Origin: Octopus vulgaris
Lineage: Eukaryota
DNA length: 64,000 nt
NCBI GenBank assembly: GCA_951406725.2
Contig: OX597815.1
Span: 36,952,001-37,016,000 of the forward strand
Direction: 5' to 3'
The notes below the pieces were generated by a model. That model did no database searches. It saw only the letters and a list, made by a program, of their open reading frames with translations, and had not been told where the DNA came from. Shown piece after piece: positions 47,447-48,399 of the stretch (position 1 is its first letter; the number at the start of each line of letters is the position of its first letter). The translations under genes were made by a program, and so were the position numbers.

Positions 47447-47496
<50 letters not shown>

Positions 47497-47643
47497 CTTA
47501 CAAACAAGGGCAAAAGAAAAAAATTCCAATGCCAAATATGCCGAGAATAGACTTTAAATCGTCAACAACTCAAGTCTACTCATGACTTTGTGTCTACTTC
47601 TTCCATGGGTGCAAGTAAGTATTTCATTTATTTCTTAACGTAT

Positions 47644-47704
47644 TTACCACTGATGACGAGAAAATTCTTTATGAACTAACTCAGAAATCAGACCGATCCG
47701 GTAA
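47644..47704 (+). ncRNA. Type-I hammerhead ribozyme motif (family F, copy 1)
   Basis: TTACCA CTGATGA(47650-56) C GAG..CTC A GAAA(47684-87) TCAGACCGA TC CGGTAA; two substitutions relative to copy 2. Confidence 0.75.
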
Positions 47705-48091
47705 TTCTTAAGAAATTTCTGTTGGCTTGATTCGGGACGCGTGCTTATAATGATGAATTATATGTGGTTATTGACGATTCTCGGCATATTTGGCACTGCA
47801 ATTTTTTTTCTTTTGCCCTTGTTTATAAATTTCACCTTAAAAGGTATTTTTTAATATGCTGGCCACTGATAAAATGTTTTTGAAAATTTTATCCTATGTT
47901 AGATGTAAATTTGATACCATTCACTTCCGGACTCTCTCAGTCAATGAAAATTTTCAGTCTGATCGCACGTGTCTCGAGGTGTGCTGAAGAATTTCTATTT
48001 GGATATATTTGGGGTACTCAAGTGTACACATGACTTTGTGTCTACTTTTTCTATGGGTGCAAATAAGTATTTAATTTATTTCTTAACGTAT

Positions 48092-48152
48092 TTACCGCTG
48101 ATGACGAGAAAATTCTTTATGAACTAACTCAGAAATCGGACCGATCCGGTAA
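48092..48152 (+). ncRNA. Type-I hammerhead ribozyme motif (family F, copy 2)
   Basis: TTACCG CTGATGA(48098-104) C GAG-AAAA-TTC-TTTAT-GAA-CTAA-CTC A GAAA(48132-35) TCG-GAC-CGA TC CGGTAA; 6 bp stem I; AUC cleavage predicted after 48146. Confidence 0.88.
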
Positions 48153-48399
48153 TAACGGAATTTTTTAGAAATTTCTGTCAGCTTGCTTCCGGACACGTGC
48201 TTATAGTGATGAATTATATGTGGTTATTGACGATTTAAAGTCTATTCTCGGCATATTTGGCATTGGAATTTTTCTTTTGCCCTTGTTTATAAGTTGTTTG
48301 TAAATTTCACCTTAAAAGGTATTTTTTAATAAGCTGGCCACTGATAAAATTTTTTGAAAATTTTATTCTATATTATATATATATATATATATCTTTTAT

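Follow-up and report, generated by a model that had tools for sequence, protein, structure and literature searches.

A hammerhead-bearing tandem insertion in a TA microsatellite with the probable integration footprint of a Penelope-like element

Non-LTR retrozymes are short tandem repeats carrying type I hammerhead ribozymes and have been proposed to be non-autonomous Penelope-like elements (PLEs) (PMC7229834, Cervera and de la Pena 2020), and an argument based on Xenopus derives retrozymes from the pLTRs of PLEs (Li, Clavereau and Pollet 2026, bioRxiv 10.64898/2026.07.22.740005). Insertions of PLEs are described as partial tandems that are truncated at the 5' end, adjoin an inverted copy and bear a tail of 30-40 bp at one end, and PLEs as carrying hammerheads in the pLTR and showing an insertion bias towards microsatellites (PMC8557442, Craig et al. 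2021), an anatomy given likewise in PMC8969392. For the Poseidon PLE of Anolis, in vitro work indicates that the protein acts on the two strands of AT-rich DNA, which it cuts and extends, that two internal reverse transcription (RT) starts downstream of the hammerhead delimit the tail, and that hammerhead cleavage is unnecessary, unprocessed RNA being the main substrate (PMC11167929, Frangieh et al. 2024). Recently active Penelope families are reported from Octopus vulgaris in passages that do not mention ribozymes (PMC13282606), and literature searches on hammerheads, Penelope and retrozymes in octopus and cephalopods brought up no description of such a family; Repbase, Dfam and supplements may contain one.

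So far, the identity of the enzyme that moves animal retrozymes and the use of circles as its template have been argued from co-occurrence and sequence similarity. This study concerns a 64-kb window, meaning the whole stretch of DNA analysed, which is AT-rich and dense in microsatellites. Within it, an insert of about 880 non-coding bases with a TA repeat on either side (the 47496 element) represents one copy of a many-copy hammerhead repeat, and the evidence supports reading it as a hammerhead-bearing tandem element inserted whole into (TA)n. Because the insertion has the shape of a Penelope-like retrotransposon insertion, the element is likely a retrozyme moved by Penelope enzymes; we hold with considerable confidence that it is a non-autonomous PLE (non-LTR retrozyme), probably inserted by a Penelope GIY-YIG/RT protein acting in trans. 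It is a new member within the known retrozyme class and not a new class of element. Its value lies in the legibility of a physical PLE integration footprint (inverted arm, two termini, tail and TA target) on a retrozyme, and this footprint is found on several families inside 64 kb. The family may also account for part of the unclassified repeats in a microsatellite-rich host genome, which is probably octopod to judge by its SINE and repeat features.

Anatomy of the insertion and its hammerheads

The insert consists of (TA)23, an inverted arm of about 72 nt, 1.7 head-to-tail units of a 474-nt monomer, a tail of 66-77 nt and (TA)9 (Table 1). The initial annotation had described an inverted arm and two hammerheads 448 nt apart between two (TA)n runs, and this layout was recovered, with (TA)23 at 47449-47494, hammerhead cores at 47650 and 48098 and AUC triplets ending at 47698 and 48146; its count of about 1.8 units is revised to 1.7 (330 and 474 nt). 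The monomer has a GC content of 33%, a longest stop-free frame of 54 codons and no RT/GIY-YIG ORF. As had been noted, the two units differ by substitutions and indels: of 326 aligned sites 20 are different, there are 5 gaps, and three 8-11-nt deletions in unit 1 each lie between short direct repeats.

Table 1. Features of the 47449-48391 insertion (positions in the window).
Feature	Position	Strand	Remark
(TA)23, presumed target microsatellite, left part	47449..47494	.	
Inverted arm: 5'-truncated copy of the unit 3' region, to the short terminus (= 48294-48305)	47496..47569	-	
Unit 1: upstream copy, 5'-truncated, pseudo-LTR equivalent	47568..47897	+	three 8-11-nt deletions relative to unit 2
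Type I hammerhead 1, predicted site after 47698	47644..47704	+	core at 47650
Predicted cut-to-cut RNA, 448 nt	47699..48146	+	requires cleavage at both sites
Unit 2: complete 474-nt non-coding monomer	47898..48371	+	
Type I hammerhead 2, predicted cut after 48146	48092..48152	+	core at 48098
Tail beyond the arm's end, 66-77 nt	48295..48371	+	carries terminal hairpin and motif common to other families
Terminal hairpin in tail	48343-48367	+	
TA microsatellite, right part, about 9 TA units	48372..48391	.	

The arm is indeed an antisense copy of downstream sequence, with 94.6% identity between 47496-47569 and the reverse complement of 48223-48294, and it overlaps unit 1 by 2 nt (47568-47569). The further proposal that the arm matches unit 2 stands in that TTAAAGTCTA occurs in the arm and in unit 2 and is missing from unit 1. 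Copying from unit 2 does not follow from this resemblance, because the 2 differences between arm and unit 2 over 70 sites are compatible with the unit-unit rate of 6.1% (P=0.19) and the deletion is probably private to unit 1. The TA runs are flanked on both sides by 3' parts of a dispersed SINE-like repeat, at 47407-47423(-) and 48433-48449(+). The inverted 17-mers at 47407 and 48433 were considered as target duplications and rejected, their motif occurring 8 times in the window. Non-LTR retrozymes have no LTR, PBS or PPT, and their target duplication, when there is one, exceeds 4 bp; such a duplication is unreadable inside (TA)n.

Hammerhead 2 is complete by sequence. Its 6-bp helix I is followed by CUGAUGA and then an extra C, helix II is GAG/CUC, and after an extra A come GAAA, ATCGGACCGAT and AUC; helix III is palindromic and comprises 4 bp and a triloop as a monomer. 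The stems initially assigned to both hammerheads (TTACCG/CGGTAA and ATCGG-A-CCGAT) are correct for hammerhead 2 and not for hammerhead 1, where helix I reads TTACCA, with an A47649·C47699 mismatch adjoining the cut site, and helix III reads ATCAG-A-CCGAT, with an A47690·C47694 mismatch. Both mismatches are CpG-to-CpA type changes, and hammerhead 1 is probably damaged in this copy, so that the 448-nt product is doubtful here. Li et al. call a copy 'active' when a complete hammerhead occurs in each of two consecutive units; the mismatched unit 1 makes it less likely that this copy is active and leaves its family membership untouched.

According to folding models, which leave out tertiary contacts and protein help, the active fold costs 4.4 kcal/mol over the predicted ensemble for hammerhead 2, 6.1 for hammerhead 1 and 16.6 for a double hammerhead, and the predicted 448-nt circle shows no exceptional self-pairing (z=-1.55, 2 of 40 shuffles). 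This copy would be a weaker candidate than first proposed for supplying a 448-nt monomer or circle, given the two mismatches in hammerhead 1 and modelled active folds 4-7 kcal/mol above the ensemble. The hammerhead motif itself is beyond chance: one descriptor counted 5 hammerheads here, whereas 100 block shuffles of the window gave 0.06 on average (maximum 1). An Rfam scan of the window returned no match at the gathering threshold, to a hammerhead model or otherwise, and 4 chance-level matches at E<=10, none of them a hammerhead; hammerhead pattern scans of viral, genome and metagenome contigs gave only 4 metagenome loci, chance matches of 22-30 nt.

Neighbouring elements and the wider repeat family

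Two further hammerhead families in the window, B and C, have the same layout as the 47496 element, are unrelated to it in sequence and both adjoin (TA)n; the architecture, whose recurrence at other loci the initial annotation had anticipated, is also found in contigs of the 47496 element's own family. Family B, at 757-1585(+), repeats with a period of 546, its hammerhead cores lying at 801 and 1347; its units are identical across a stretch of about 265 nt, its helix III is a perfect palindrome, ACGTACGT, and it ends in (TA)n at a position homologous to the end of the 47496-element arm. The circle predicted between its two cut sites is strongly self-paired (z=-6, 0 of 40 shuffles), and family B is a younger and better candidate for cleavage and circles than the 47496 element. 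Its 5' arm mirrors DNA across (TA)n at about 688-724. Family C, at 22482-23116, comprises an inverted arm, a hammerhead core at 22786, a duplicated 3' end and (TA)n; the region continuing to 23343 holds copies of the terminal bases interleaved with (TA)n, followed by another inverted end. The core, the helices and a palindromic helix III are kept in all three unrelated families. An unpaired base stands on each side of the helix II base in each of them (C/A, U/U and A/A), as seen at cores 47650, 48098, 801, 1347 and 22786.

The 47496-element tail aligns with family B and with 7065-7175(-), neither score being reached in 500 shuffles. The other related terminus that had been proposed, here taken as 1622-1730(-), gives an alignment that is not significant on its own (53 of 500 shuffles), and its link runs only through family B (72% over 89 nt). 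Neither locus is a copy of the 47496 element, and neither terminus occurs alone as had been stated, each having a small inverted arm; both of these arm-plus-tail stubs also adjoin (TA)n. TA-flanked hairpin or arm-plus-tail stubs were observed at 1622-1798, 1848-2176, 2206-2278 and 7069-7189. Such stubs are probable short-truncation products of the same insertion process. Among 5 termini, a small sample in which two come from the 47496 element, the terminal hairpin has 8 pairs, and one pair shows a two-sided change in 2 of the 5. In total, (TA)n adjoins the 47496 element, families B and C and the stubs, all within one 64-kb window. A CCC(T/A) motif of the short termini showed no enrichment beside TA runs (10 of 74, P=0.07, vs. 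11 of 94 for other microsatellites). Seven CCCTAA telomere-type repeats occupy an internal position at 8010-8049.

A remnant of an EN+ PLE (11261-11979) encodes an RT thumb, a CxxxxCxxC linker and a GIY-YIG end and is followed by (TA)n; tblastn matched it to an RT and GIY-YIG protein at E 1e-33, and a HMMER search with the GIY-YIG fragment found 692 relatives, whereas word-based protein searches and Pfam gave no match to that fragment. The truncated element extends over 11130-12285(+), being 5'-truncated with stops and frameshifts, and a degenerate hammerhead-like CTGAGGA-GAG-AAAA-CTC lies near 12127. Similarity between the end of this Neptune-like remnant and that of the 47496 element is within background (score 41), although one 14-mer, chosen post hoc, matched the remnant's end; an autonomous PLE with matching ends was not found, the 64-kb window providing only this one remnant for comparison. 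An ORF at 19616-19942 was considered as a PLE N-terminus and found unsupported. The ORF remnant at 28134-28661(-) presumably resembles a Helitron, Pfam giving no significant match.

The monomer was compared with contigs of four out of 24 public runs from 13 studies, X1 and X23 (organism A), X3 (organism B) and X5 (organism C); organism A, as sequenced in X1, may be the window's source, and the classing of X23 as RNA is a guess. Totals of 2834 (X1), 2770 (X3), 1261 (X5) and 260 (X23) contigs align at 80% identity or above, mostly at 80-95%, and the family is dispersed and highly repeated. The profile of X23 equals those of the DNA runs and is uninformative on expression. Upstream of 47899, loose ends correspond to the unit's own 3' end in 20, 19, 13 and 3 contigs (X1, X3, X5 and X23, respectively), with back-joints from 48349 to 47899 (X1 and X3) and from 48324 to 47899 (X5), and a diverged X1 contig with 56 differences spans 47920-48303. 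Since the head-to-tail joints recur and a diverged contig crosses the unit, the closed non-coding unit is a family trait. Among the 15 joints listed of 38, 6 change strand, all at different places, each seen in a single contig per run with the depth of one locus, and one is common to X1, X3 and X5; the 5'-5' geometry of these inversions at other loci is assumed, joint direction not being given, and the inversion joint of the 47496 locus itself is not among the 15. Behind 48288, a position near the arm's end, loose ends of 18 contigs in X1 and 10 in X5 enter TA-like sequence, at an agreement of only 0.61-0.63.

Summed depth in X1 and X3 reaches 300k-570k over 48258-48347, compared with 15k-26k over the hammerhead and about 52 for single-locus contigs, suggesting hundreds of hammerhead-bearing copies and thousands of 3' copies, with the caveat that summed contig depth is not copy number, that overlapping contigs inflate it and that subfamily divergence can mimic a 3' bias. 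The 3'-most bins were left out as repeats, so at other loci the long terminus falls outside the comparison. A family letter is listed for 8 of the 20 sites that differ between the units, and unit 1 carries it at all 8. Both units share a non-majority letter at at least 16 listed sites, and the arm shares two of these (48247 and 48265); on account of these shared letters, the arm and both units likely come from a single donor, each drifting separately afterwards. The family majority has AUA at the cleavage site and a longer helix II, and a variant in X3 carries ATCGGGTCCGAT, which is still self-complementary via G·U pairs. Among the 40 variant positions listed of 78, there is no hammerhead core position, nor position 48097, the partner of the variable 48147.

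Mobilisation of the element and competing explanations

The traits of a PLE insertion that are present include a partial tandem with a 5'-truncated upstream copy and an inverted, 5'-truncated copy at the 5' end. Following PLE biochemistry (PMC11167929), the endonuclease would nick each strand of a (TA)n run, and the two 3' ends so freed would prime reverse transcription on the RNA of one donor from two fixed internal starts. Synthesis from the distal site, which follows the terminal hairpin, would yield the long product of 1.7 units with the tail, and synthesis from the proximal site, 66-77 nt upstream, would yield the arm; the two cDNAs would then join head to head across the 2-nt overlap. 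The template would have passed both hammerhead sites uncut, as a linear multimer or as a circle, and the balance tips slightly towards a linear multimeric read-through RNA. Subsequent drift of about 3% per unit is likely, and would have damaged hammerhead 1. Where family members are intact, their palindromic helix III would make dimeric cleavage the favoured mode.

That this copy is instead an active source of a self-excised 448-nt RNA, whose circles are reverse-transcribed into insertions as proposed for retrozymes (PMC7229834), is unlikely. The two hammerheads are in register, the palindromes of helix III could give rise to a double hammerhead, core 2 cutting site 1 with a perfect helix I, family B has units identical for about 265 nt and a strongly self-paired predicted circle, and circles are made by mussel and coral retrozymes (PMC7229834); against this stand the two mismatches of hammerhead 1, the costly active folds and unremarkable fold of the 448-nt circle, the finding that the anole PLE has no need of hammerhead cleavage (PMC11167929), and the cleavage of only 1 of 9 Xenopus dimers (bioRxiv 10.64898/2026.07.22.740005). 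Mobilisation of the same non-coding family by a LINE (CR1/L2/RTE) would also fit the 3' excess of copies, as LINE-type priming does, but we regard it as improbable because partial tandems, the tail and the pLTR hammerhead are PLE traits (PMC8557442, PMC8969392). The insert also carries neither a poly(A) nor a repeat tail of its own, and a tRNA gene search of 46500-49500 found none. In L1 twin priming the inverted sequence comes from upstream and does not overlap the rest, but the arm here repeats a 3' region that the body also contains; the arm is therefore unlike a product of twin priming, which speaks against a LINE. The window does hold an ORF remnant at 16668-17192(-) that we take to resemble an RTE-type LINE, with no significant match in Pfam.

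PLE insertions being mostly 5'-truncated partial tandems (PMC8557442), the locus might be merely the truncated, locally duplicated end of an autonomous PLE, with no separate non-autonomous family behind it. This is very improbable and is largely refuted by the family contigs: elsewhere the unit's own 3' end precedes the monomer start, and diverged contigs cross the whole unit without an ORF, in keeping with its short stop-free frames. Hardly credible is a series of local accidents, in which tandem duplication with TA-cruciform fold-back repair, or mis-assembly, surrounds a chance hammerhead look-alike. In this repeat-rich DNA, 15 of 366 random probes do have an inverted copy within 1.5 kb, and Rfam gave no match, but the excess of motifs over the shuffles, the conservation of core, helices and palindromic helix III in three unrelated families, the separate substitutions of the arm and of each unit, and the recurrence of the junction types in independent runs all argue otherwise.

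Beyond the preferred reading of a retrozyme mobilised by Penelope enzymes, it is conceivable, if rather doubtful, that diverse retrozyme families share one RNA address for the Penelope protein and that hammerhead cutting limits most templates upstream. The address would consist of two fixed start sites bracketing the conserved terminal hairpin; because cutting would set the upstream template limit, most insertions would be hammerhead-less 3' stubs, and rare uncut or circular RNAs would found new source copies. In all four runs, summed depth climbs by a factor of 4 to 15 from 48143 to 48156, an interval containing the cut site. However, depth drops once more over 48186-48239, and alignments also break near the same place because of a subfamily whose helix III loop differs. 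If this were true, the PLE hammerhead would be a limiter of its own spread.

Comparison with described elements

Like metazoan non-LTR retrozymes, the 47496 element is built of short tandem units that are AT-rich, code for no protein and contain a type I hammerhead, and it is dispersed in many copies (PMC7229834); its hammerheads share with axolotl HHR_Amex2 a mismatch at the helix II base. This likeness is known from the sequence, cleavage and circles being predicted. The monomer, at 448-474 nt, is longer than the retrozyme RNAs of 170-400 nt (PMC7229834) and within the 51-972 bp of Li et al. (bioRxiv 10.64898/2026.07.22.740005). The element shows an inverted arm, while the word 'inverted' is absent from the main text of PMC7229834, and the available parts of Li et al. 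give neither an arm, a tail nor a TA target. Chlamys MRC1 is similarly a non-autonomous PLE derivative with pLTRs and head-to-tail insertions; the Chlamys elements belong to green algae, most have no canonical hammerheads, and their 3' ends are shared with known autonomous partners (PMC8557442), of which none was found for the 47496 element.

In insertion anatomy the 47496 element corresponds to EN+ PLEs (Neptune/Nematis/Hydra), which likewise show a partial tandem, an inverted 5' copy, a tail at one end, a bias towards (TA)n and a sense hammerhead near the 3' end (PMC8557442). Unlike these, the 47496 element has no RT/GIY-YIG ORF, and its tail of 66-77 nt is about twice the 30-40 bp of PLEs (PMC8557442). 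Its hammerheads resemble those of PLEs in the extra base between 9 and 10.1, the G10.1-C11.1 pair and the palindromic helix III, and depart from them in one more unpaired base, located between 11.1 and 12, and from minimal PLE hammerheads in a longer helix III (PMC4209133, Cervera and de la Pena 2014). Poseidon of Anolis, unlike the 47496 element, is autonomous, with starts in an AC-rich stem-loop inside the ORF (PMC11167929); the terminal hairpin of the 47496 element is AU-rich, and we infer its correspondence with that stem-loop. By analogy, the two RT starts of Poseidon would fit an arm and a body that end at two different termini (PMC11167929), as they do in the 47496 element.
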